Shown here in pieces: positions 17,345-53,864 of a DNA stretch of 53,864 nucleotides. A model generated the notes under the pieces. The model was given only the letters and a program-made list of their open reading frames with translations, was not told the DNA's origin and did no database searches. The stretch's first letter is position 1; the number at the start of each line of letters is the position of its first letter. The stretch spans positions 1 to 53,864 of the forward strand of contig PWZA01000132.1 in the NCBI GenBank assembly GCA_003567655.1. The letters are read 5' to 3'. This stretch comes from Dehalococcoidia bacterium (GTDB lineage: Bacteria > Chloroflexota > Dehalococcoidia > GIF9 > AB-539-J10). The position numbers were made by a program, and so were the translations under genes.

Positions 17345-17420
17345 TGGTGAGCCGCCTGGGACTCGAACCCAGAACCGGCTGATTAAGAGTCAGCTGCTCT
17401 ACCGATTGAGCTAGCGGCCC
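17345..17420 (-). tRNA. tRNA-Lys (anticodon CUU), CCA encoded
   Basis: The reverse complement GGGCCGCTAGCTCAATCGGTAGAGCAGCTGACTCTTAATCAGCCGGTTCTGGGTTCGAGTCCCAGGCGGCTCACCA folds by hand into a cloverleaf. It has a 7-bp acceptor stem, a CT-CTT-AA anticodon loop and a GGTTCGAGTCC T-arm. Confidence 0.92.
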
Positions 17421-17515
17421 AGCGGAATAATGTTAGCACCAACGCGTAACGCAATCAACCAGCGCCATAACGACTGAACCCGCTTGACAGTTTGTGCTAG
17501 AATAGGCCCGAGTCT

Positions 17516-18085
17516 ATGAATATCGTTCGTGAAGCCGGTATAGCTATAATCATCGCCATAGCAGTGTTCGTTCTTCTGCAGTTCAATGTGCAGAGCTATA
17601 CTGTTCGATATGGCAGTATGCTTCCCAATGTCAGGGAAGGAGACTGGGTGATGGTCAACAAGGCGAGTTACTTCTTCTCCGATCCTAAAGTAGGAGACGT
17701 CATAGTCTTTGACCCGCCTTTCGATTCTCCCCATCCCTATATCAAACGCGTGATAGGACTCCCGGGTGATCTTGTTGAGGTGAAGGATAGCAAGGTCTTT
17801 ATCAACAATATACCACTCGAGGAGGAACACATCATGGCCCCTCCCAGCTACACAATGTCAGCTAGGGAGATTCCTGCAGGCGAGTACTTTGTCTTGGGAG
17901 ACAATCGTAACAACAGCAACGACTCTCGTTATGACTGGACAGTTCCGCGGGAGAGCATCGTTGGCAAAGCATGGTTCACGTATTGGCCGCCGGATAGATG
18001 GATGGTGGTCAGGCACTATCCCTACCCTGAATTAGAGGGCACGGCTGATCAGGAGCTTGTGGTCAGTTATGCGATCGGGGGGTAG
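17516..18085 (+). CDS. lepB: Signal peptidase I
   Basis: N-terminal transmembrane segment, catalytic Ser context YGSMLPNV, YIKRVIGLPGD, and the GDNRNNSNDSR box. Confidence 0.92.
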   Translation: MNIVREAGIAIIIAIAVFVLLQFNVQSYTVRYGSMLPNVREGDWVMVNKASYFFSDPKVGDVIVFDPPFDSPHPYIKRVIGLPGDLVEVKDSKVFINNIPLEEEHIMAPPSYTMSAREIPAGEYFVLGDNRNNSNDSRYDWTVPRESIVGKAWFTYWPPDRWMVVRHYPYPELEGTADQELVVSYAIGG

Positions 18086-18087
18086 TC

Positions 18088-18654
18088 TTGAGCGATGAAG
18101 TACTCGATCTATTCAAAGCTGCCGGGGCGCTAAAGGAAGGTCACTTCCTCCTTAGCTCCGGATTGCATTCGCGTGTATACTGGGAAAAGTTTCGCGTCCT
18201 GCAATACCCGCATATTACGGAACGGCTATGCGGTTTGATCGCGGCACATTTCAAAGAGCAGAGAGTGGATCTGGTCGCGGGTCCGACGACAGGAGGCATT
18301 GTCCTTGCTTTCGAAACCGCCCGGCAGTTGGGAATCCGCAGCATCTTCGCCGAGAAGCAAGGGGCGACAAGGCTGTTCCGACGCGACTTTCAGATCGTGC
18401 CCGGCGAACGTATCCTTGTTGTTGATGATATCCTCACTACCGGTAGTTCGGTTAGAGAGACTGCTGCTGCAGTGGATAGTCTGGGGGGAGTTGTGATAGG
18501 AGTCGGTGTGCTCGTTGACAGGAATGAGAAGGGCCTGGGCTTGAGCATTCCTTTGTTTAGTTGCCTTCGGGCGCCAACGTCTGCCTATCCGGCTGAAGAA
18601 TGCCCTCTGTGCGCGGCTCATGTCCCCCTGACTAAGCCCGGATCCTCTTGCTAG
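18088..18654 (+). CDS. pyrE: Orotate phosphoribosyltransferase
   Basis: 188 aa, TTG start 2 nt after the lepB stop. GHFLLSSGLHS motif and PRPP-binding loop ILVVDDILTTGSS. Confidence 0.88.
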   Translation: MSDEVLDLFKAAGALKEGHFLLSSGLHSRVYWEKFRVLQYPHITERLCGLIAAHFKEQRVDLVAGPTTGGIVLAFETARQLGIRSIFAEKQGATRLFRRDFQIVPGERILVVDDILTTGSSVRETAAAVDSLGGVVIGVGVLVDRNEKGLGLSIPLFSCLRAPTSAYPAEECPLCAAHVPLTKPGSSC

Positions 18655-18863
18655 TGGGTTAGGTGCTGCCCTTGGTTGCTCTGTCCCAGCTTGAATGGAT
18701 GTGTCGTCATACTGGAGTTACCACAATGGCCATTACATGTTTATCTACTTAGGCGCATCCTTTGAACCAACTCATCCTGCGGTGCAGGTCCTAGGGATGG
18801 TCAATCATCCGGCTATAATACTCCCTTGACAGTAGAATGAGGAATACCTAAAATACCATTGCT

Positions 18864-18939
<76 letters not shown>

Positions 18940-19059
18940 TTCGGTTAGTCTTCTGACTGGGCCCGGGGAATGGCAAAGTCGATATTCGAGTTTGATCTCG
19001 GCGACGCCACGCTAGTAACCGGGTGAGCCTTCTCAGATCAGCGTGACTATACTCGTCCA

Positions 19060-19147
19060 GCCGAAGTGGCGGAATGGCAGACGCGACAGTCTCAAAAACT
19101 GTTGGGGGGCAACCCCCGTGTCGGTTCGAGTCCGACCTTCGGCACCA
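19060..19147 (+). tRNA. tRNA-Leu (anticodon CAA), long variable arm, CCA encoded
   Basis: GCCGAAGTGGCGGAATGGCAG...CAGTCTCAAAAACTG...TGGGGGGCAACCCCCGT...GGTTCGAGTCCGACCTTCGGCACCA. Acceptor stem GCCGAAG/CTTCGGC. The variable stem-loop is typical of class II tRNAs. Confidence 0.9.
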
Positions 19148-19250
19148 GAGTCACCTGTCTATGCGAATAACCGGGCGCCAGAATTGTGTGGGGTTTACCT
19201 GATGTCGACATTCCTGTTATTCTTGAGCTTGGGAGTCTGAAAGGCGAGAG

Positions 19251-19324
19251 TGCCGGGTTGTGTAGCGGTAGCACAGAGGACTTTGGATCCTTTAGCCCAG
19301 GTTCGAATCCTGGCCCGGCAGCCA
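19251..19324 (+). tRNA. tRNA-Gln (anticodon UUG), CCA encoded
   Basis: TGCCGGGTTGTGTAGCGGTAGCACAGAGGACTTTGGATCCTTTAGCCCAGGTTCGAATCCTGGCCCGGCAGCCA. It has the U1-A72 pair typical of bacterial tRNA-Gln and a CT-TTG-GA anticodon loop. Confidence 0.9.
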
Positions 19325-19424
19325 TATACCATGATCAGTGTCAGACACCTTGATGGCCTATACCGTAGAGAGAGACTGGCGGCTACTGTCAAGCATGAGC
19401 CCGCATGCGGCAAGGACGAGGTTG

Positions 19425-19937
19425 ATGCAGACACTTGAGGATGTGACTATATACACTGATGGCGCCTGCTTGGGAAATCCCGGCCCCGGTGGATATGGGA
19501 CAGTCGTGCTCTGTGAAGGCGGGCGAATGGAGCTATCGGGTGGGTATCGCTGGACTACGAACAACAGGATGGAGATGATGGCTGCCATTGTCGGATTGCA
19601 GGCGCTGAAGAGGAGATCCCGCGTTACGGTGTACAGTGATTCGGAGTACATGGTGAAGGCAATCACCAGAGGGTGGGCCCAAAGATGGCGGACAAACGGG
19701 TGGAGGCGAAATAGACGGGAGAGGGCTCTAAATCCTGACCTGTGGGAGATGCTCCTCGAGCTTTGTAAACACCATGAGGTCGATTTCAGATGGGTAAAGG
19801 GTCACTCTGATAGTACAGAGAACATTCGTTGTGATGAGTTAGCAACACAGGCTGCTCGACATGTGAGCCTGCTTGAGGATGTGGGCTATATATCTCAGAG
19901 CACTGATGATCATACAGCGCGGGTTGCAGATATGTAG
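19425..19937 (+). CDS. rnhA: Ribonuclease HI
   Basis: VTIYTDGACLGNPGPGGYG, NNRMEMMAAI, VYSDSEYMV and WVKGHSDSTENIRCDELA motifs. I prefer ATG 19425. The ORF-track start 19338 would lie only 13 nt downstream of the tRNA-Gln 3' end (19324). Confidence 0.88.
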   Translation: MQTLEDVTIYTDGACLGNPGPGGYGTVVLCEGGRMELSGGYRWTTNNRMEMMAAIVGLQALKRRSRVTVYSDSEYMVKAITRGWAQRWRTNGWRRNRRERALNPDLWEMLLELCKHHEVDFRWVKGHSDSTENIRCDELATQAARHVSLLEDVGYISQSTDDHTARVADM

Positions 19938-20066
19938 CCCGACGCAATATCGGATCACGCTGTGAATTTCGCCGTGGAAGTCTAGCTAGATGCGTCTTGA
20001 GTTAATTGGCAAAAGATGCCAAAATCAACATCAACGGCGCATTGGCTACTCCAGCAGGTCAGACGT

Positions 20067-20141
20067 TCCCCGGTAGCTCAATGGTAGAGTGGGCGGCTGT
20101 TAACCGCTTGGTTGCAGGTTCGAATCCTGCCCGGGGAGCCA
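20067..20141 (+). tRNA. tRNA-Asn (anticodon GUU), CCA encoded
   Basis: TCCCCGGTAGCTCAATGGTAGAGTGGGCGGCTGTTAACCGCTTGGTTGCAGGTTCGAATCCTGCCCGGGGAGCCA. CT-GTT-AA anticodon loop. Confidence 0.9.
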
Positions 20142-42239: not shown

Positions 42240-44630
42240 ATGGCACAGCAGACAGAAGTAAGCCCCGAACTGAGGACCCGCATAAGGGAGTATCTTCAGG
42301 CAAAGGGCTATGAAGTGACCGACGACGCTGAAGTCATCGGAAAGTCGGATGTCGCGCATATATTCGATATGCTGGCTTATATAGACGATGGCTTCAACAG
42401 CTATGTGCTTGCCGTCTGCATCACGACCGGAGGTGACAGGAACGCCGAGGTGGAGACCATCTACCACTTCGCCAACAAGTGCTACGATTGCGGAGTCATC
42501 GACAGGGTCCTCATCGCGGCACCTGAGATAAGCGAAGAGGCCAGGCTGCTGGCGCGCAAGCAACGAATAAAGGTCATCGATGGAGAGCTCGTTGAGAAAC
42601 TGCTGAACTCGAGGCCTTCGGGGCCGATCAAACGCAAAGAACAGCTCAGGTTCGAGACCAGGGAGGAGTTGATACAGTCCCTGGTCGACCTTGGCTACAG
42701 CGTGCAGGAACAGGCCAGGATCCAGGGCCAGTCCGGCGTTGAGTATATCTTCGATGTACTGGCCCACACCAATACCGGCCAGGTCAGCCATACGCTGGGC
42801 CTCGACTTCCTGAACGGGAGCGACCAGGTGAACCTGGAACAGGTGACACTGTTCGATACCAAGGCTTACGACGCCGCCGTCGACGGCAAGGTCATCGTCG
42901 TATCTCCGGACATCACCCCGGAGGCCAGGAAGTTCGCCCAGCACCAGAGAATAAGGGTCATAGAACTCGAACCGAAGACCGATGAAGGGCCTGTGAACGA
43001 AGCCGAAGAGGCGGTGAAGGAACCGGAGGAGGCGGTGAAGGAACCGGAGGAGCCGGTCAGGGAACCCGAAGAATCGGTCAAGGAACCCGCAGAGACGCTT
43101 CCCAGGTCGAAGGCGAAATCAACCAAGCTGGAGAAGCCGCATGCCAGGCTCTCGAAGCAGCAGCCTGAGGCAGAGGCACTGCAACTGATCCCCGAGTTGG
43201 TGGCCAGGAGGTACAGTGCCATACCTCTGACCATATCCGGCAAGACGCTGGAAGTAGCTATGGCAGACCCGAGCGATATCTTCGCACTCGAGGCACTGTC
43301 GGCCCATAGCCGTATGAGGATCAGGCCTGTGGCAGCCAGCGCCAAGGACGTCCGCGATGCCATCGACCTTAACTATAAGGGCTATGGCGAAATCGAGAAG
43401 CACCTTTCGCGGATCAACATCCCGGAGGAAGCTACCGATGAGAAGATCGCGCTGACGGCTGCCACCGACACTCCGTTGGTGCAGGCCCTTAATCTTATTA
43501 TTGAAGAGGCGGTCAAGTCCCGTTCCTCCGATATCCATATCGAGCCGGAGGAGGACAGGATCAGGGTCCGCTACCGTATAGATGGCACTCTGCACGATAC
43601 GATGTCGCTGCCCCTGAGTGTACACCGCGCCCTGATCTCACGCATCAAGATACTCGGCGGCATGAACATCGCAGACCACTTCCGTCCCCAGGACGGCCAG
43701 TTCTCGGCCGACTCCACCGGGCGTGACATTGATATCAGGGTTGCCACCGCTCCTACCGTACAGGGTGAGACGGCAGTCATGCGAATCCTGGACAAGTCGC
43801 TGGCCACCCTGGGCCTCTCGGAGTTGGGACTGCGGCCCGACGGCCTGGCCAAGATCGAGGGCCTGCTGCGGATTCCATACGGCATGCTACTGGTCAGCGG
43901 TCCTACCGGAGCGGGGAAGACTACTACCCTCTATGCAGCTATCAACTCCTTCGACACGTTGTCCAATAACGTGATCACAATCGAGGACCCTGCCGAGTAC
44001 CGCTTCAAGTCCATCAACCAGATACAGGTCAACAACCAGGCAGGGATCACCTTCGCCAGCGGTTTGAGGTCCATACTACGCCTGGACCCGGATGTGGTGC
44101 TGGTCGGTGAGATACGTGATTCGGAGACGGCCAACATAGCCGTTCAGGCATCACTGACCGGTCATCTCCTGATGTCCTCCATCCATGCCAACGATGTTGG
44201 AGGTGTGCTCTCCCGGTTACACGACCTGAAGGTCGAGCCCTTCCTCATAGCTTCGGCCGTCATCGGTGTAATAGCTCAGCGGATGGCGCGCCGTGTCTGC
44301 CCCGATTGCAGTCATCTCATTGAGGCCCCGGCGATCGAGCAGATGGCCTACGAAAAAGAGATGGGTGAGAAGAAGACGAAATTCCACTACGGCACCGGCT
44401 GTAAGTCGTGTGCCTATTCCGGTTACCGCGGGAGGACGGGACTGTTCGAGATTCTGACCATGAGCGACGAGATAGGCACCATGATCTGCAACCGCGCCAG
44501 CAGTACCGCTATACGGGCGCAGGCGCTCAAAGAGGGCATGGTCTCTATGATGAGCGATGGCATGCACAAGGTAAAGGACGGCATTACCACCCCCTCCGAG
44601 GTATTGCGCAATGCATACACAGGAGGATAG
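42240..44630 (+). CDS. pilB: Type IV pilus assembly ATPase PilB/GspE with two N-terminal Mrr-like (PD-(D/E)xK fold) domains
   Basis: T2SSE_N domain (IPELVARRYSAIPL..EVAMADPSD), Walker A GPTGAGKTTT, Asp/His boxes, and the tetracysteine CPDC...CKSC. The N-terminal 290 aa hold two paralogous domains. I prefer ATG 42240 (AGGAG upstream); the alternative is GTG 42159. Confidence 0.9.
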   Translation: MAQQTEVSPELRTRIREYLQAKGYEVTDDAEVIGKSDVAHIFDMLAYIDDGFNSYVLAVCITTGGDRNAEVETIYHFANKCYDCGVIDRVLIAAPEISEEARLLARKQRIKVIDGELVEKLLNSRPSGPIKRKEQLRFETREELIQSLVDLGYSVQEQARIQGQSGVEYIFDVLAHTNTGQVSHTLGLDFLNGSDQVNLEQVTLFDTKAYDAAVDGKVIVVSPDITPEARKFAQHQRIRVIELEPKTDEGPVNEAEEAVKEPEEAVKEPEEPVREPEESVKEPAETLPRSKAKSTKLEKPHARLSKQQPEAEALQLIPELVARRYSAIPLTISGKTLEVAMADPSDIFALEALSAHSRMRIRPVAASAKDVRDAIDLNYKGYGEIEKHLSRINIPEEATDEKIALTAATDTPLVQALNLIIEEAVKSRSSDIHIEPEEDRIRVRYRIDGTLHDTMSLPLSVHRALISRIKILGGMNIADHFRPQDGQFSADSTGRDIDIRVATAPTVQGETAVMRILDKSLATLGLSELGLRPDGLAKIEGLLRIPYGMLLVSGPTGAGKTTTLYAAINSFDTLSNNVITIEDPAEYRFKSINQIQVNNQAGITFASGLRSILRLDPDVVLVGEIRDSETANIAVQASLTGHLLMSSIHANDVGGVLSRLHDLKVEPFLIASAVIGVIAQRMARRVCPDCSHLIEAPAIEQMAYEKEMGEKKTKFHYGTGCKSCAYSGYRGRTGLFEILTMSDEIGTMICNRASSTAIRAQALKEGMVSMMSDGMHKVKDGITTPSEVLRNAYTGG

Positions 44631-48248: not shown

Positions 48249-48620
48249 GAAGATGATTGCATCACCTCCAGGATGCTGAGCGAGCCAGTATACCGCGAGG
48301 TATAACCATTCACCAGAACTGGCAAGGCATCGGAATCCGCCTGGTCTGTCTCTCTCCAGTCAGCCTGCCTGTTATCCGGAATGGACAGCAGGAAGGGTCA
48401 AAACGACCAATCTGATAGTCTTGCCGCCAATTGTGTAGAATAGCTCAGATTTGCGCCGTGTTACTCTCCGGAGACGCCATCCCGTGCTTGGCGAAAACAC
48501 TTCTATTTCAATCCCAGACAGGACCCTTGAGACTGCTCTACGGTAACCTGTCGTTCAGAAGCCGACCTCACGAGACAGAGCAGTTTCCAGACTTCTAATC
48601 AGAGATTGCCTGGATCAGAG

Positions 48621-48930
48621 TGTTCCGATACGATCGGAAGGACTGGCAGTGATGCACTGATGCTACGCTAGTCCCCACCCCTCTGAGATTGCCGCGCTGC
48701 GCTCGCAATGACACCGCCTTATTTGTAAGTGCGAGGAGCCTACATACCCTGTCTTTGCGAGGAGTCCCGATGCAATCGGGACGACGAAGCAATCTTTAGG
48801 CCACAAACAACAGACCGCCTCGTCCTGGTTGTCCCGATACGATCAAGAGGACTCGCGATCACAGGTACATAGTGAAAGGCTGAAAGCGTCGCACCATGTC
48901 CTCTTCCCCCGGAGGGAGAGAGTTAGAGTG
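48621..48930. repeat. Composite hairpin-module repeat, copy A (left flank of hicBA)
   Basis: Aligns base-for-base with 49540..49852 at an offset of 919/918 nt. About 230 nt are nearly identical, and the last ~90 nt are more diverged. Contains GATTGCCGCGCTGCGCTCGCAATGAC (48687..48712) and three short hairpins. Confidence 0.85.
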
Positions 48931-49041
48931 AGGGGGAAAGAGCCCCGGCACATCTGCGAGTCGTCGGACCTGCCAGGGAAGACAGAGTCCATTTTTTTAT
49001 GTAGAATATCCATGCAGCCAGAGCGGGCTGCGAGGTGTGCT

Positions 49042-49236
49042 ATGAGATACAAAGTCAACCTTGAAAAGACCGACGAGGGGTACGCTGTTTGGTGTCCCGG
49101 GTTGGCCGGCTGCTGGTCACAGGGAGAAACTGAGGAGGAGGCACTCGACAACATAAGAGATGCTATTCAGGCCTACCTGGAAACGGTTGAGGAGTTGACC
49201 CGAGACAATGAGTCCCGCTACGTCGAAGTAGGCTAG
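49042..49236 (+). CDS. hicB: HicB-family antitoxin (UPF0150-type)
   Basis: MRYKVNLEKTDEGYAVWCPGLAGCWSQGETEEEALDNIRDAIQAYLE is the typical HicB N-terminal domain. The ORF-track extension back to 48829 reads through repeat copy A and is not credible. Confidence 0.8.
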   Translation: MRYKVNLEKTDEGYAVWCPGLAGCWSQGETEEEALDNIRDAIQAYLETVEELTRDNESRYVEVG

Positions 49237-49239
49237 AGC

Positions 49240-49452
49240 ATGCCTCGAATACCGGGTGTAAATCACCAGCAAGCGGTCAAGGTCTTTGAGAGCCTGGGGT
49301 TCTGGATCGCACGTCAGGGTAAGCATATCACAATGACCGACGGCAAGCGGGTGATCACTATTCCGCGAGCCAATCCCATAAACGCCTTCACGATGGCCGG
49401 AATCGTAAGGGATGCCGGGCTTAGTATCGAGGAGTTCAGACAGCGCCTGTAG
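49240..49452 (+). CDS. hicA: HicA-family mRNA interferase toxin
   Basis: 70 aa. VNHQQAVKVFESLGFWIARQGKHITMTDGKRVITIPRANPINAFTMAGIVRDAGLSIEEF matches the YcfA/HicA dsRBD-like fold pattern. Starts 3 nt after the hicB stop. Confidence 0.85.
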   Translation: MPRIPGVNHQQAVKVFESLGFWIARQGKHITMTDGKRVITIPRANPINAFTMAGIVRDAGLSIEEFRQRL

Positions 49453-49539
49453 AGGTATCCCGGGCCTCAGGGCTGCTGCACAGTACTCACCATTACGCCT
49501 GGCACATCGTCTCAACATCGGCCCTCATGACATCCCGAT

Positions 49540-49852
49540 TGTCCCGATACGATCGGGAGGACTGGCAGTGACGCACTGATGCTACGCTAGTCCCCACCCC
49601 TCTGAGATTGCCGCGCTGCGCTCGCAATGACACCGCCTATTTGCAAGTGCGAGGAGCCTACATACCCTGTCTTTGCGAGGAGTCCCGATGCAATCGGGAC
49701 GACGAAGCAATCTTCTGGCCACAAACAACAGACCGCCTCGTCCTGATTGTCCCGACACGGTCGGGAGGCCTCGCAATGACAGGTGCGTAGTGAAGGGACG
49801 ACGGCGGCATACCCCGTCCCCTCTACCCCGGAGGAAGAGAGCCAGAGCGATG
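49540..49852. repeat. Composite hairpin-module repeat, copy B (right flank of hicBA)
   Basis: Direct repeat of 48621..48930. Contains GATTGCCGCGCTGCGCTCGCAATGAC (49606..49631) and the hairpins TCCCGAT-acg-ATCGGGA, GTCCCGAT-gca-ATCGGGAC and TCCCGAC-acg-GTCGGGA. Confidence 0.85.
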
Positions 49853-50045
49853 AGGTGTCCACGAATACCGGCTGCCGGTACTTACCTGCCATTACAGATG
49901 GGTGATTGACGTTAAATATAGTCATCCCTATACTGGTAACTTGCTGGATAAGAACAAACCCGCAGAGGCTGGTTGTAGCGTCAGTCACCATTGCGGTGCC
50001 CCGCGGGGATATCCAGACTCAGGAATAGGAAAGGCGAATCAGCCG

Positions 50046-50579
50046 GTGAGATTAGGTAAGAAAGCGTGGGTCATCATAGGAATTGTGGTTCTGGCCATAG
50101 CGCTCGGCTTCATGGTCTCGCTCTATTCTCAGACAAGTGCAGAGCACAGACAACTCACCGACAGACTGGACAGGGCTCAGACGGATCTTCCCCGGCTACG
50201 AGCGGAGAAGACAGACCTGGAGAGCCAACTAGCGCAGGCTACATCATCACTGGACAGGAGCCGGGCCAAGTTCCCTCAGGCCATAGAAAGCGTTGAATAC
50301 GGTGAGGACTTGTGCAGGACTGCGGTAGAGCACGGTCTAAGGATAGTCGACTTCGACACACGGAGGCCGACCGACAGGCCGGTGGGCGACATATCTTATA
50401 TAGTTGCCTCATTCGATATAGTTGTATCCGGTACCGTGAGCAATATACTTGACTTTCTGGACGCATTGAGAACGGGCACGGATTTTCAGGATCCGTGGAG
50501 TGCCCAACTAAGGGAGGTCAAGCTTGACTACCGTGAGTCGGAAGTAACCATAGCGCTGGATATCTACGGCTACAAGTGA
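50046..50579 (+). CDS. PilO-like pilus assembly protein (TM, coiled coil, alpha/beta domain)
   Basis: From GTG 50046: VRLGKKAWVIIGIVVLAIALGFMV transmembrane helix, a coiled-coil stretch (RQLTDRLDRAQTDLPRLRAEKTDLESQLAQA), and a small C-terminal domain. The ORF-track start 49902 would add a non-hydrophobic, Cys/His-rich leader. Confidence 0.45.
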   Translation: MRLGKKAWVIIGIVVLAIALGFMVSLYSQTSAEHRQLTDRLDRAQTDLPRLRAEKTDLESQLAQATSSLDRSRAKFPQAIESVEYGEDLCRTAVEHGLRIVDFDTRRPTDRPVGDISYIVASFDIVVSGTVSNILDFLDALRTGTDFQDPWSAQLREVKLDYRESEVTIALDIYGYK

Positions 50580-50588
50580 TAGGAAGAA

Positions 50589-52025
50589 ATGGCGAAGAAA
50601 GCTACGACATTGTTTATCAGGGACAACAGCATCAACCTGCTCGTGATGAAGGGCAGGCAGATAGACAAATGGGCCAGTACATCGCTCGAGCCGGGGCTGG
50701 TCAGCCAGGGGCTGATCGTGGACGAGGACGGGGTGGCGGAGCTGGTCAGGCAGTTGTTCCGGCAGGAGAAGGTCTCCACGGACAGGGTCATCACCGCGCT
50801 CAGCGGGCACGATTCTCTGTACCGGATCATCACCCTGCCCGATGTGCCCGACGCTGTGCTACCCGAGGCCGTGAGGCGCGAGGCCAAACGGACGATACCG
50901 ACGCCCTTAGATGAGGTCTACGTCTCCTACCAGAGTGTCCCCTCCATGAAAGGGGAGAGACGTGTCTTCCTGGCCACATACCCCCGCAACTCGGTCGATG
51001 CCATGATCAGGACCCTGCGCAAGGCAGGTATAAAGCCTTACGTCATGGACCTGGCGCCCCTGGCTCTATGCCGTATACCCGATCTGCCGCGCTCTATAAT
51101 CATAAACGCACGGCTGGATCACCTCGAGGTAATGGTCATAGCAGACAGGCTTCCGCAGGTCATCCGCAGGTTGTCACTGCCCGGCGAGACCGAATCTTTG
51201 GAGGAAAAGCTGCCCCTCATAGCCGAGGAGTTCACCAGGACCTTCACGTTCTATAACTCGAGCCACATGGAGAACCCTCTCGACTCCACCGTGCCCGTGT
51301 TCGTCTGTGGTGACCTGGCGGAGGCGCCGGACACCTGGGAATCGCTGGTTGCCGAACAGGGCAATTCCGTGGCGGCGCTGCCGCCCCCTATCGCAGAAGT
51401 TCCCGAGGGCTTCGATCCCGACCAGTTTATGGTCAATATCGGTCTCGCCCTCAAGGAGCTGCTGACGGACAAGGAGGGCGCCGAGTTCTCCGTCATCAAC
51501 TTCAACGCCCTGCCCGAGACCTACCTGCCCAAGCATTTCTCAGTCGCCAGGGTCGTCATCCCCGTCGGTATAGTCATCGGCATTGCCGCCGTCGTGTTCG
51601 GGGCCGTTCTCGTCCTGCATACCAGGGCCCAGATCGATGACTTGCGCCCCCGGGTTGAGACCGAGGAGGGGCACGTCGTTCAGTACCAGAGGGACATAGC
51701 CTCTCTGAGGGGAGAAATCGGACCGATGGACGACACCGCCAGGGCCCTCGATAGCAGGATCAGTGCCATGGAGATGAGGCGAGCCGAGATCGCCATTGAC
51801 CTGCGCGAAATCCACAGATTGGCGCATGCCATCACTCCATTGAGCTTGACCGAAGTTGTTCACAGGGTTGACAGGGTAATCGTTGAGGGTAGAGCCACAG
51901 ACTGTACTTACATCTATGACTATGCCCGGGAACTGAGGAACAGCGGGAGATTCTCAGCAATTCGCATTCACTCTTTCGACCGTGACAACCGTCAGTACGA
52001 CTTTGAGTTAGACCTGAGCAAGTAG
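50589..52025 (+). CDS. pilM: PilM (actin-like ATPase fold) fused to a PilN-like transmembrane/coiled-coil module
   Basis: The N-terminal ~330 aa are PilM-like (SINLLVMKG..., LPDVPDAVLPEAVRREAKRTIP, AGIKPYVMDLAPLAL). Then comes a transmembrane helix (VVIPVGIVIGIAAVVFGAVLVL) and a coiled-coil/fimbrial-assembly-like C-terminus. Confidence 0.75.
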   Translation: MAKKATTLFIRDNSINLLVMKGRQIDKWASTSLEPGLVSQGLIVDEDGVAELVRQLFRQEKVSTDRVITALSGHDSLYRIITLPDVPDAVLPEAVRREAKRTIPTPLDEVYVSYQSVPSMKGERRVFLATYPRNSVDAMIRTLRKAGIKPYVMDLAPLALCRIPDLPRSIIINARLDHLEVMVIADRLPQVIRRLSLPGETESLEEKLPLIAEEFTRTFTFYNSSHMENPLDSTVPVFVCGDLAEAPDTWESLVAEQGNSVAALPPPIAEVPEGFDPDQFMVNIGLALKELLTDKEGAEFSVINFNALPETYLPKHFSVARVVIPVGIVIGIAAVVFGAVLVLHTRAQIDDLRPRVETEEGHVVQYQRDIASLRGEIGPMDDTARALDSRISAMEMRRAEIAIDLREIHRLAHAITPLSLTEVVHRVDRVIVEGRATDCTYIYDYARELRNSGRFSAIRIHSFDRDNRQYDFELDLSK

Positions 52026-52037
52026 GAGGGGAAGGAA

Positions 52038-53117
52038 ATGGACGTTTTCAAGTTGCTTAAAGAGGCCAAGACAAGGCTTGCCAGCGATCTGCACATGGTC
52101 GTCGGCAGCCCGGCGTCGTACCGCATCAACGGCTCTCTGGAACCGGCCAACGGCGTTACTCCGCTTACGGCCGAGGATGTCAACGAGGCCTTTCTGCAGA
52201 TAACCACCCCTGAGGAGAGGGAGCACTTCCACCGTCACCTGGAGCTCGACTTCGGTTATACCATGCCCGATGTCGGCCGCCTGCGCTGTAACGCCGCGCA
52301 GCAACGCGGCTCCATCAGCCTGGCAGTGCGTTTGCTGCCCCCGAGAATACCGACCATCGATGAACTGGGGCTCCCCGAGATATGCAAACAGCTGGCGGTC
52401 AGGCCGAGGGGACTGCTGCTGGTCACCGGGCCTACAGGGAGCGGAAAGAGCACGACCCTGGCCGCCATGATTAACTACCTGAACAACAACGAGACCCGCC
52501 ATGTGGTCACCGTGGAAGACCCCATCGAATATGTCTACCCCAGCATCAAGTGTGCTATCACCCAGCGCCAGCTGGGCACCGATACCCTTTCCTTTGCCAA
52601 TGCCCTTAAGCACATTCTGAGGCAGGACCCGGACGCCATCCTGCTGGGCGAGATGCGCGACCCTGATACCGCCGACGCCGTTCTGACGCTGGCCGAGACC
52701 GGCCACTTCATAATGACCACAGGTCACGCTCCCAGTGCCACACAGGCCATGGAGAGGATCATCGACCTGTTCCCGCCCCATCAGCGGCACCTGGCCCAGA
52801 CAAGGCTCGCCTCTCTGCTGGTCGGTGTGCTCTGCCAGGTGCTTGTGCCCCGCGCAGACGGCTCGGGAAGGATAGCCGCCATCGAGATCATGCTCGCCAA
52901 TCCTCCGGTACGGGCATTAATCCGCGAGGGGAAGATCTACCAGTTGCCCAACGTCATACGCACCCACCGGGAGATAGGGATGATCTCTCTCGACGAAGCC
53001 CTGGTCGCGCTATACCTCAAGGGCACTATCAGCGGCGAGAGCGTACTCGACTACTGCAACGACCGCAAGGAAGTGGAGAAGCTCATTGGCAAGGTGGGCG
53101 TCAACGGCGGCACATAA
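52038..53117 (+). CDS. pilT: Type IV pilus retraction ATPase PilT
   Basis: 359 aa. ASDLHMVVGSPASYRINGSL, Walker A GPTGSGKSTT, TVEDPIEY, ILLGEMRD and GHFIMTTGHA motifs. GGAGGGGAAGG ribosome-binding site. Confidence 0.92.
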   Translation: MDVFKLLKEAKTRLASDLHMVVGSPASYRINGSLEPANGVTPLTAEDVNEAFLQITTPEEREHFHRHLELDFGYTMPDVGRLRCNAAQQRGSISLAVRLLPPRIPTIDELGLPEICKQLAVRPRGLLLVTGPTGSGKSTTLAAMINYLNNNETRHVVTVEDPIEYVYPSIKCAITQRQLGTDTLSFANALKHILRQDPDAILLGEMRDPDTADAVLTLAETGHFIMTTGHAPSATQAMERIIDLFPPHQRHLAQTRLASLLVGVLCQVLVPRADGSGRIAAIEIMLANPPVRALIREGKIYQLPNVIRTHREIGMISLDEALVALYLKGTISGESVLDYCNDRKEVEKLIGKVGVNGGT

Positions 53118-53190
53118 GGCCGGCGTCGCCCGCGCCCGATCATCGCCCTGTCATTCACCTGCCATTCACCTGTCATTGCGCACCCTCTGT

Positions 53191-53396
53191 GTCATTGCGA
53201 GCGCAGCGCGGCAATCCGGTTCCCCGCCCAAGAGATTGCTTCAGCTGACATGGTCAGCCTCGCAAAGACAAGAAGGGGGTGTCATTGCGAGCGCAGCGCG
53301 GCAATCCGGTTCCCCGCCCAAGAGATTGCTTCAGCTGACATGGTCAGCCTCGCAAACACAAGAAGGGGGTGTCATTGCGAGCGTAGCGCGGCAATC
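53191..53396. repeat. Tandem array of 90-bp repeat units (2 full units plus a 26-nt partial)
   Basis: Units start at 53191, 53281 and 53371, an exact 90-nt period, with one mismatch between the full units. Unit sequence: GTCATTGCGAGCGCAGCGCGGCAATC-CGGTTCCCCGCCCAAGA-GATTGCTTC-AGCTGACATGGTCAGC-CTCGCAAAGACA-AGAAGGGGGT. Confidence 0.9.
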
Positions 53397-53684
53397 TCAG
53401 AGTTCATCATACAGGTCGCGCCATTCTCTGTTCATACCGTTGATCAGTTCGATCTTCCTCTGTCTCGACCCGGCCTTTATCTGCTTCTCTCTTAGAATGG
53501 CACCTTCCACGTCCTGACAGACCTCATAGTACACGAGCTTGACGACGTTGTACTTCTTTGTAAACCCCTCGACAAGCTTCTCCTTGTGTTCGTAGACCCT
53601 CTTGATGAGATCCCCGGTCACTCCCGTGTAAAGCACGGTGTTCCTGTTGCTGGTCATTATGTACACATAGTATTGATTGGACAT
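53397..53684 (-). CDS. Small GIY-YIG nuclease-superfamily protein (UPF0213/COG2827-like)
   Basis: MSNQYYVYIMTSNRNTVLYTGVTGDLIKRVYEHK (GIY...YIG block) and REKQIKAGSRQRKIELI. I prefer ATG 53684, because the ORF-track N-terminal extension reads through repeat sequence. Confidence 0.85.
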   Translation of the reverse strand: MSNQYYVYIMTSNRNTVLYTGVTGDLIKRVYEHKEKLVEGFTKKYNVVKLVYYEVCQDVEGAILREKQIKAGSRQRKIELINGMNREWRDLYDEL

Positions 53685-53703
53685 GGCCGGCAGTATATCA
53701 CGG

Positions 53704-53864
53704 GATTGCTTCGTCGTCCCGACAGGTCGGGACTGCTCGCAAAGACAAGAAGGGGGTGTCATTGCGAGCGCAGCGCGGCAATCCGGTTCCCCACCCAAGA
53801 GATTGCTTCAGCTGACATGGTCAGCCTCGCAAAGACAAGAAGGGGGTGTCATTGCGAGCGCAGC
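53704..53864. repeat. Hairpin module plus a further 90-bp repeat array (continues past the window end)
   Basis: Variant module GATTGCTTC-GTCGTCCCGACAGGTCGGGACTG-CTCGCAAAGACA (53704..53747). Then 90-nt units start at 53758 and 53848, the latter truncated by the window. They have the same orientation as 53191..53396. Confidence 0.9.

Follow-up and report, generated by a model that had tools for sequence, protein, structure and literature searches.

Near the end of a 53,864-nucleotide (nt) contig of a Dehalococcoidia bacterium (PWZA01000132.1, referred to here in its whole length as the window), a small gene for a GIY-YIG protein is embedded in an array of hairpin repeats with a 90-nt period. 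This layout raises the question of whether the gene and the repeats form one system and, if they do, how that system might act. A preliminary description of the same DNA had likened the arrangement to REP/RAYT loci, with a different nuclease fold, and knew of no described role for the pairing. The likeness is borne out by the comparisons reported below. The second statement is superseded, because the Ssn family, its flanking repeats and their cleavage were described by Chenal et al. (2025, Nat Commun 16:2388; PMC11893778). The association of ssn genes with hairpin repeats is therefore real but already known. We conclude that the locus is very probably an ssn gene with its cognate Ssn-related motifs (SRMs), hairpin repeats that would be acted upon by Ssn-type cutting of single-stranded DNA (ssDNA). 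New here are a widespread class of repeats not detected by the published search motif, the clean anatomy of a gene cassette within an array, and a link between Ssn and the CGTC-tagged REP repeats.

The ssn gene and its repeats across homologous loci

GIY-YIG (PF01541, E 1.6e-15) is the sole Pfam match of the 95-amino-acid (aa) window protein and covers residues 4-77. The protein aligns over 92 aa, ungapped, with the 94-aa SsnA open reading frame of Neisseria gonorrhoeae (50% identity, E 1e-34), and its Y8, Y19 and E66, which align with the catalytic Y6, Y17 and E64 of SsnA, are invariant in 26 homologues. A beta-beta-alpha-beta-alpha-alpha fold is predicted (AlphaFold model, pLDDT 76), for which the nearest folds are, in order, UPF0213 (1zg2), Slx1 and the UvrC N-terminal domain; a PDB sequence search with the protein matched 1zg2 only. 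NCBIfam and PADLOC gave no match for it, and there was no record of an identical protein elsewhere.

Members of the Ssn family (CDD cd10448, GIY-YIG_unchar_3) are ssDNA-cutting nucleases (PMC11893778). SsnA of N. meningitidis, a 94-aa single-domain GIY-YIG protein, binds an extended dRS3 repeat (NTS, CGTCATTCCCGCGMAVGCGGGAATCYRG) as ssDNA only and on one strand only, with the cut falling a few nucleotides upstream. Cutting depends critically on the three bases that precede the palindrome, binding on the C that follows it, and neither double-stranded DNA (dsDNA) nor RNA is a substrate (PMC11893778). What has been demonstrated for the enzyme is that it cleaves ssDNA and modulates natural transformation in Neisseria, where deletion of ssnA gives about 5-fold more transformation with NTS-bearing DNA (PMC11893778). 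Four homologues cut ssDNA near their own repeats, and at least one SRM was found near 71% of ssnA homologues and on both sides of 42%; the authors likened NTS-ssnA-NTS to an insertion sequence and to RAYT/REP/BIME systems (PMC11893778). We found no later literature on Ssn in the collection searched.

A search with the window protein gave at least 8000 candidate matches, of which the best 120 are 74-84% identical, many of them on contigs of about 1 kb. Within species-representative genomes at least 591 stretches match, and the best 80 of these (59-80% identity) belong to Dehalococcoidia, cyanobacteria, Nitrospirota, Desulfobacterota, Planctomycetota, WOR-3, Omnitrophota, Patescibacteria, Ignavibacteria, Alphaproteobacteria and others. 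The association between gene and repeat was assessed in 83 independent loci of close homologues from more than 15 phyla, using an exact 8-mer from the repeat core (CATTGCGA/TCGCAATG) as the probe. In 80 of the 83 loci this 8-mer is found no farther than 150 nt from the gene, in 51 of them on both sides, and its density falls from 9-11 per kb in the first 100 nt to 0.118 per kb beyond 1 kb. This roughly 80-fold short-range difference is the enrichment near GIY-YIG homologues that the preliminary description had proposed as a check. Where a homologue locus has a module of this type downstream (44 loci), its position is -1 or 0 from the end of the stop codon in 25 (TGA-GATTGC or TAG-ATTGC, with the hyphen at the junction), while the upstream module ends 0-25 nt ahead of the start codon in most non-cyanobacterial homologues.

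Phage and plasmid searches returned distant homologues only, and these became the key lead. In Neisseria gonorrhoeae, Aeromonas, Azospirillum lipoferum, Sinorhizobium meliloti, Shinella, Planktothrix, Spirosoma and Photobacterium, ssn is flanked by (C/T)GTC-AT[stem]...[stem]AT-C hairpins, which in Neisseria are the dRS3 repeats; GTC-tagged hairpins with AT first in the stem thus stand beside ssn in 8/8 distant homologues. All three GTC-tagged hairpins found in a 30-kb stretch of Azospirillum lie within 110 nt of ssn. Repeats of the window type, the GCAAT class, occur near the gene in 80/83 close homologues against 0/8 distant ones (Fisher p = 2e-9). Classical SRMs show the reverse distribution (1/83 against 5/8, p = 7e-6). 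Protein clade and repeat class therefore co-vary.

Approached from the repeats, a metagenome scan with GATTGCN{4,34}CTCGCAATGAC yielded 120 loci with a total of 663 kb, so the repeat is not confined to the window locus. An ssn gene is present in only 7 of these loci, in 4 of them within 300 nt, and the modules are therefore mostly gene-less, dispersed, REP-like repeats. Gene-less doublets of like design are scattered in the intergenic DNA of this and many other genomes. Among 111 adjacent module pairs with spacers of 1-65 nt, the arrangement was LR in 78, RL in 19, LL in 9 and RR in 5, most pairs thus being doublets with tags outward, and nearly all doublets in this list have a pyrimidine before GTC. 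By a crude typing of the modules, 56 of the 78 doublets are heterotypic. A core-versus-variant polarity of the cassette was no more than a trend (14 of the 31 cassettes with both flanks typed), and no claim is made for it because the typing is crude.

These comparisons bear on the simplest alternative, a chance neighbourhood of generic intergenic hairpins (terminators or mRNA stabilisers) and an unrelated GIY-YIG repair gene. The repeats are indeed intergenic and mostly far from any ssn gene, and some could act as RNA hairpins. Chance is already contradicted, however, by the short-range enrichment, and it fares no better with the fusion of stop codon and module in 25 loci or with the co-variation of protein clade and repeat class. 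In addition, no T-run terminator was found at the module sites, and binding and cutting of such repeats by a homologue have been demonstrated directly (PMC11893778). We consider this explanation scarcely credible.

Judged from sequence, the window gene is best filed as a predicted member of the Ssn family and its repeats as a putative divergent SRM class, because of the homology to SsnA, the shared tag, stem and tail, the failure of the SRM motif and the co-variation of clade and class. The published search motif, HGTCWYN(0-2)YYVSBRHN(0-5)WNVSBRGN(0-2)RNCYNB, does find gene-adjacent repeats in five controls (Neisseria, Sinorhizobium, Azospirillum, Aeromonas and Shinella). A very large and highly conserved Ssn clade would thus use a repeat class that this motif does not detect, and published ssn-repeat frequencies are probably underestimates because the motif misses the window-type class.

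Several points weigh against this assignment. The SRM motif has 0 matches in the window and finds repeats in only one of the 83 close-family loci. The first stem position is T, not A, in the variant modules. Single modules fold like shuffled sequence (core module -5.5 kcal/mol, z -0.05), whereas the Neisseria NTS has a z of -3.6. According to the authors of the Ssn paper, moreover, a physiological role of Ssn is known for Neisseria only (PMC11893778).

Single-module hairpins were dropped as thermodynamic evidence (z about 0), and since they are not significant the stem is argued from compensatory variants instead. The basic module is GTCWTTGCGAG-(variable interior, often a short hairpin)-GCAATC, with a basal stem of 5 bp (ATTGC/GCAAT) around an interior of 12-30 nt. 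The basal stem is kept by the paired changes TTA/TAA, TCG/CGA, TTC/GAA, TGG/CCA and CTG/CAG. There are 28 such compensatory cases in at least 5 variant classes, against about 5.5 expected among 350 cases with both sides changed. Whole doublets fold well beyond shuffled sequence (z -3.6 to -4.9), and the first gene-less doublet of the window array forms a multi-branch hairpin of -21.9 to -22.5 kcal/mol (z -3.6 to -4.6). The modules have no match in Rfam, either at gathering thresholds over the whole window or in E-value mode over 48400-53864, and a literature search with the repeat sequence returned primers only.

Anatomy of the array and the cassette

The anatomy of the array was read from the sequence of 52800-53864. 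Tandem Repeats Finder (TRF) reports a period of 90 with 2.3 copies and 98% matches over 53189-53396, and after the gene the array starts again at 53736 and runs past the window end (repeat family D1). The 26-nt core GTCATTGCGAGCGCAGCGCGGCAATC starts on the + strand at 53191, 53281, 53371 (1 mismatch) and 53758, and a fifth copy from 53848, 90 nt after the fourth, is cut off by the window end. Two further copies lie on the - strand at 48687 and 49606, giving 6 matches in the window against 0 expected (100 shuffles).

The unit starts, the exact period and the three single-base differences between units given in the preliminary description were all recovered, as was the 95-aa GIY-YIG reading frame between the repeats. 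It had also stated that all units share one orientation, opposite to that of the gene. This opposition to the gene is a reading convention only. The 90-nt unit is no single repeat but pairs two inverted hairpin modules (GTCWTTGCGAG...GCAATC / GATTGC...CTCGCAATGAC) in a doublet, with their GTC ends directed outward. Read on the + strand, the unit consists of the 26-nt core module (GTCATTGCGAG-CGCAGCG-CGGCAATC), a 17-nt spacer, a 36-nt inverse module (GATTGCTT-CAGCTGACATGGTCAGC-CTCGCAAAGAC), here called the variant module, and an 11-nt linker. TGTC precedes every core and variant module of the array. This tag, the AT-first stem and a C plus YRG tail (AATC-CGG) can be recognised by eye in the window repeats.

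The ssn cassette occupies 53371-53746 (376 nt). On the gene strand it comprises the variant module, 19 nt containing TG-n-TATACT, the reading frame, and a TGA stop fused to the core module; doublets and cassette alike run from variant module to core module on this strand, and the gene with its promoter spacer stands in place of one doublet's 17-nt spacer. The cassette is in register with the array, because the same 11-nt linker AAGAAGGGGGT adjoins it on both sides. The preliminary description was accurate in placing the gene boundary at a module boundary and a variant module about 20 nt upstream of the ATG, the distance being 19 nt. The string CTCTGAGATTGCC... at the junction of stop codon and module recurs, as it had noted, at 48681 and 49600 (repeat pairs I1, I4). 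A gene remnant at these two sites was considered and rejected: the 6 nt CTCTGA alone are common, and there is no similarity further upstream. Likewise, the spacers of the gene-less doublets in the array contain no remnant of the gene or promoter.

The 19-nt spacer contains an extended -10 element (TG at 53700-53699 and TATACT at 53697-53692) that ends 7 nt before the ATG and would give a leaderless ssn mRNA. A generic promoter scan did not report a -10 site near the ATG, because there is no -35 box. A -10-like hexamer occupies the same position in 10 of 61 homologue loci, mainly from Dehalococcoidia, against a mean of 2.3 and a maximum of 6 in shuffled controls. As it is confined to these 10 loci, the leaderless -10 box was rejected as a family feature.

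A second metagenome contig, of 1582 nt (JGI 3300000365, SL_9KL_010_SED; locus L212) is 99.9% identical to window 51696-53277 and ends within the first 90-nt unit. Since the window also ends inside a unit, both ends fit a multi-copy repeat that interrupts assembly. The same contig points to soda-lake sediment as the origin of a close relative. The features of the locus are collected in Table 1.

Table 1. Features of the ssn cassette, the repeat array and the hicBA region (window coordinates)
Feature	Position	Strand	Details
ssn gene, 95-aa single-domain GIY-YIG protein	53397..53684	-	ORF and Pfam
Downstream module of cassette, GTCATTGCGAGCGTAGCGCGGCAATC on +	53371..53396	+	directly abuts TGA stop
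Upstream (variant) module of cassette, gene strand reads GTCTTTGCGAGCAGTCCCGACCTGTCGGGACGACGAAGCAATC	53704..53746	-	repeat pairs I14, I15
19-nt spacer, upstream module to ATG	53685..53703	-	extended -10 box inside
Gene-less doublet 1	53191..53269		core 53191-53216 (tag +), 17-nt spacer, variant 53234-53269 (tag -)
Gene-less doublet 2	53281..53359		modules 53281-53306 and 53324-53359; family D1
Gene-less doublet on the gene's other side	53758..53836		modules 53758-53783 and 53801-53836; family D1, 98% identity
Start of next doublet, cut by window end	53848..53864	+	
11-nt linker AAGAAGGGGGT	53270..53280		again at 53360-53370, 53747-53757, 53837-53847
Run of truncated module heads (GTCATTCACCT / GCCATTCACCT / GTCATTGCGC), outer array edge	53147..53190	+	TRF period 11, 2.8 copies
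Composite module cluster left of hicBA	48618..48917		48687-48712 (tag -), 48751-48794 (tag +), variants; families D2, D3
Second composite cluster, right of hicBA	49537..49835		modules 49606-49631, 49669-49712, 49745-49780; 85-96% identical to first
hicB	49042-49236	+	Pfam HicB_lk_antitox, E 7e-10
hicA	49240-49452	+	Pfam HicA_toxin, E 5e-6

Predicted cutting and possible mobility

By analogy with Neisseria SsnA, the window protein would bind one strand of a module only in single-stranded DNA, such as arises in replication, recombination or DNA uptake. It is expected to recognise the module hairpin together with the unpaired TGTC tag on its 5' side and the C after the stem, and to cut the tagged strand a few nt 5' of TGTC. 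Each strand would be cut once in every 90 nt, and on both strands the predicted cuts fall in the 11-nt linkers, because the core modules are tagged on + and the variant modules on -. On the sense strand, cutting would yield a piece of unit length, 387 nt, around the gene, and this piece would contain the whole cassette. Such fragmentation of SRM-marked ssDNA would probably limit or redirect recombination across SRM-flanked genes, with the duplication and relocation of doublets and ssn cassette between SRM clusters as a side effect. It may be useful to the host, which would restrict or trim ssDNA that enters or recombines, as in Neisseria, or it may spread the repeats. The window protein and its modules represent a predicted new enzyme/site pair for the ssDNA-cutting toolbox.

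Several comparisons bear on relocation and turnover. Loci L001 and L222 share an orthologous ABC-transporter operon (79-85% nt identity), in which the ssn cassette lies in different intergenic module clusters. Loci L002 and L003 are one locus from different samples, and their differences are confined to the repeat tract; a clean insertion or excision was rejected for this pair, as the alleles are complex replacements. Tandem identical ssn copies, each with its own modules, are present at L076 (9490-10873, about 1 kb apart) and L091 (9992-10717, about 430 nt apart). Together with the truncated module ends, these relocations, repeat-tract differences and gene duplicates hint at turnover and relocation of the cassette and repeats.

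Such turnover could reflect an autonomous mobile element, in which module-ssn-module is a tiny transposon-like unit mobilised by Ssn and the gene-less doublets are its non-autonomous MITE- or REPIN-like derivatives. Cuts in the ssDNA of the linkers would free unit-length fragments, whose ends would be paired by the inverted modules and which host enzymes would reinsert or copy. This would account for a gene placed exactly at the doublet spacer position and in register with the array, for the predominance of tags-outward doublets (78 of 111 adjacent pairs), and for modules with variable interiors but with ends conserved in more than 15 phyla. The 59-80% aa identity between phyla suggests horizontal spread. 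The presence of the cassette in different SRM clusters of an orthologous operon, the tandem duplicate genes, the restriction of between-sample polymorphism to the repeats and the insertion of the gene within conserved operons (between sufB and sufC, and between the DISARM genes MmeI and drmA) also fit. On the other hand, neither a target-site duplication nor a conserved target was seen, the one regularity being a pyrimidine ahead of the doublet and a purine behind it, and the gene-less spacers retain no trace of gene or promoter. The identical 11-nt linkers fit tandem duplication equally well, the L002/L003 alleles are not those of a clean transposition event, and we know of no GIY-YIG enzyme that joins DNA. 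We therefore regard mobilisation by Ssn as possible but rather unlikely.

Many GIY-YIG enzymes are homing endonucleases, which offers a different route to the same layout: Ssn would be a homing-type selfish gene that cuts empty doublets, which are then repaired from the gene-bearing copy via the modules as homology arms, the modules themselves being of independent origin. Both the position of ssn between two modules and its relocation between SRM clusters would follow from this. Homing would have to be very inefficient, however, because only about 3% of module loci carry the gene, and the co-variation of module class with protein clade across phyla argues against independently pre-existing repeats. 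Since Neisseria SsnA also lacks any dsDNA cutting (PMC11893778), we consider homing quite improbable.

A broader proposal extends the mobile element to the published repeat families, with the CGTC-tagged REPs, the dRS3/NIMEs and the pan-bacterial GTCATTGCGAG class among the non-autonomous derivatives of an autonomous, ssDNA-mobilised module-ssn-module element; we consider this extension unlikely. Were this extension true, the second great REP superfamily would have its long-missing enzyme in Ssn, which would also be the first GIY-YIG nuclease that drives DNA-only transposition. The clean anatomy of the window locus and the relocated cassette in a related genome make it directly testable whether Ssn spreads its own repeats.

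Truncated module ends, such as the run at the outer edge of the window array, also occur as tandem end-fragments at L003 (10340-10450), L012 (downstream of 6244) and L213 (18550-18620 and 19190-19260). At the edges of arrays there are often short tandem runs of truncated module ends together with a few adjoining bases, as in a repeated GGGCTCGCAATGAC-AATAAAAAAA. These runs could be footprints of repeated cutting and repair, or of slippage.

Known repeat systems and neighbouring features

The window locus is closest to the published Ssn/SRM loci, with which it shares a single-domain GIY-YIG protein of about 94 aa (50% identity, catalytic Y/Y/E kept), oriented hairpins on both sides of the gene whose unpaired tag is (C/T)GTC and whose stem starts with AT and is followed by a C, many dispersed and clustered gene-less copies, and a repeat-gene-repeat layout around other genes, here hicBA. 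It differs in the repeat itself, as the window class (GTCWTTGCGAG...GCAATC) combines a 5-bp basal stem with a 12-30-nt interior, often with an inserted hairpin, and fails the published SRM search motif, whereas in Neisseria-type repeats the stem is 8-9 bp and the loop 4-5 nt. Further differences are the fusion of stop codon and module, the -10 box placed for a predicted leaderless transcript, and the array of exact 90-nt period with the gene in register. The window host is Dehalococcoidia-like, neither symbiont nor pathogen, and the protein clade is one known from its sequences.

A second likeness is to the CGTC-tagged REP superfamily catalogued by Di Nocera et al. in 2013, which includes the Neisseria dRS3/NIME arrays and Rickettsia RPE-4/6 and whose members, unlike the GTAG REPs with their RAYT, 'lack a dedicated transposase' (PMC3733652). 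These repeats carry an unpaired CGTC/TGTC tag at one end, AT first in the stem and a short tail, are mostly inverted dimers and often heterodimers, and are intergenic and clustered in some genomes (PMC3733652). The window modules have one of the recognised tags (CGTC/TGTC/CCTC), and the pair counts given above (LR 78, RL 19, LL 9, RR 5) show the same inverted-dimer organisation. They depart from the stem of the four published families (8-9 bp from AT, with a 4-5-nt loop), as the window stem is 5 bp and the variants start with TT. No enzyme dedicated to these repeats was identified in 2013; ssn genes lie among such repeats both in the Ssn paper and in the 8 loci examined in this work, and the two publications (PMC3733652, PMC11893778) seem to concern one and the same system. 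The 2013 catalogue is not among the references of the Ssn paper.

RAYT proteins are HUH/Y1 (IS200-like) transposases that act on GTAG-tagged repeats through a covalent tyrosine intermediate. REP/REPIN-RAYT systems (REPtrons, BIMEs) resemble the window locus in having a single small nuclease gene between inverted copies of a hairpin repeat that is dispersed as inverted doublets, and in a conserved unpaired tag beside a variable palindrome; recognition on ssDNA would, by analogy, be shared as well. With a GIY-YIG fold and a GTC tag, however, the window locus is analogous in layout and not a member of these systems. The IS200/IS605 'peel and paste' elements would similarly be alike in subterminal hairpin ends recognised as ssDNA and in cleavage offset from the hairpin, but their enzyme class differs, and the window unit is far smaller (376 nt with the gene) and shows no evidence of excision or integration.

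Elsewhere in the window, the toxin-antitoxin pair hicB/hicA is bracketed by two direct module clusters of about 300 nt, and this repeat-gene-repeat layout resembles that described around Neisseria genes. The ssn cassette lies immediately downstream of type IV pilus genes for a PilM-like protein (50589-52025) and a PilT-type ATPase (52038-53117). In natural transformation, which SsnA modulates in Neisseria, DNA is taken up by type IV pili; this neighbourhood is probably a coincidence, because the neighbours are unrelated at other homologue loci. There, ssn lies between sufB and sufC in Azospirillum lipoferum 4B (L217, 15001-15294), between gltA and lpxB in Sinorhizobium meliloti (L216, 14992-15276) and between the DISARM genes MmeI and drmA in Planktothrix (L213, 18847-19131).

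A gene for a 'four helix bundle / 23S rRNA intervening-sequence protein' occupies an intergenic gap adjoining the same hairpin modules at L001 (13427-13831), and another is found within the DISARM operon of the Planktothrix plasmid, one gene from ssn (L213, 13309-13668). These genes look like a second family of small intergenic hitch-hikers. Two further features of the window are an imperfect tandem repeat at 42984-43094 (period 21 nt, about 4.6 copies, 82% matches, GAACCCGAAGAGGCGGTCAAG), which would correspond to a 7-residue repeat if coding, and a cluster of five tRNA genes (Lys, Phe, Leu, Gln and Asn) at 17345-20141.

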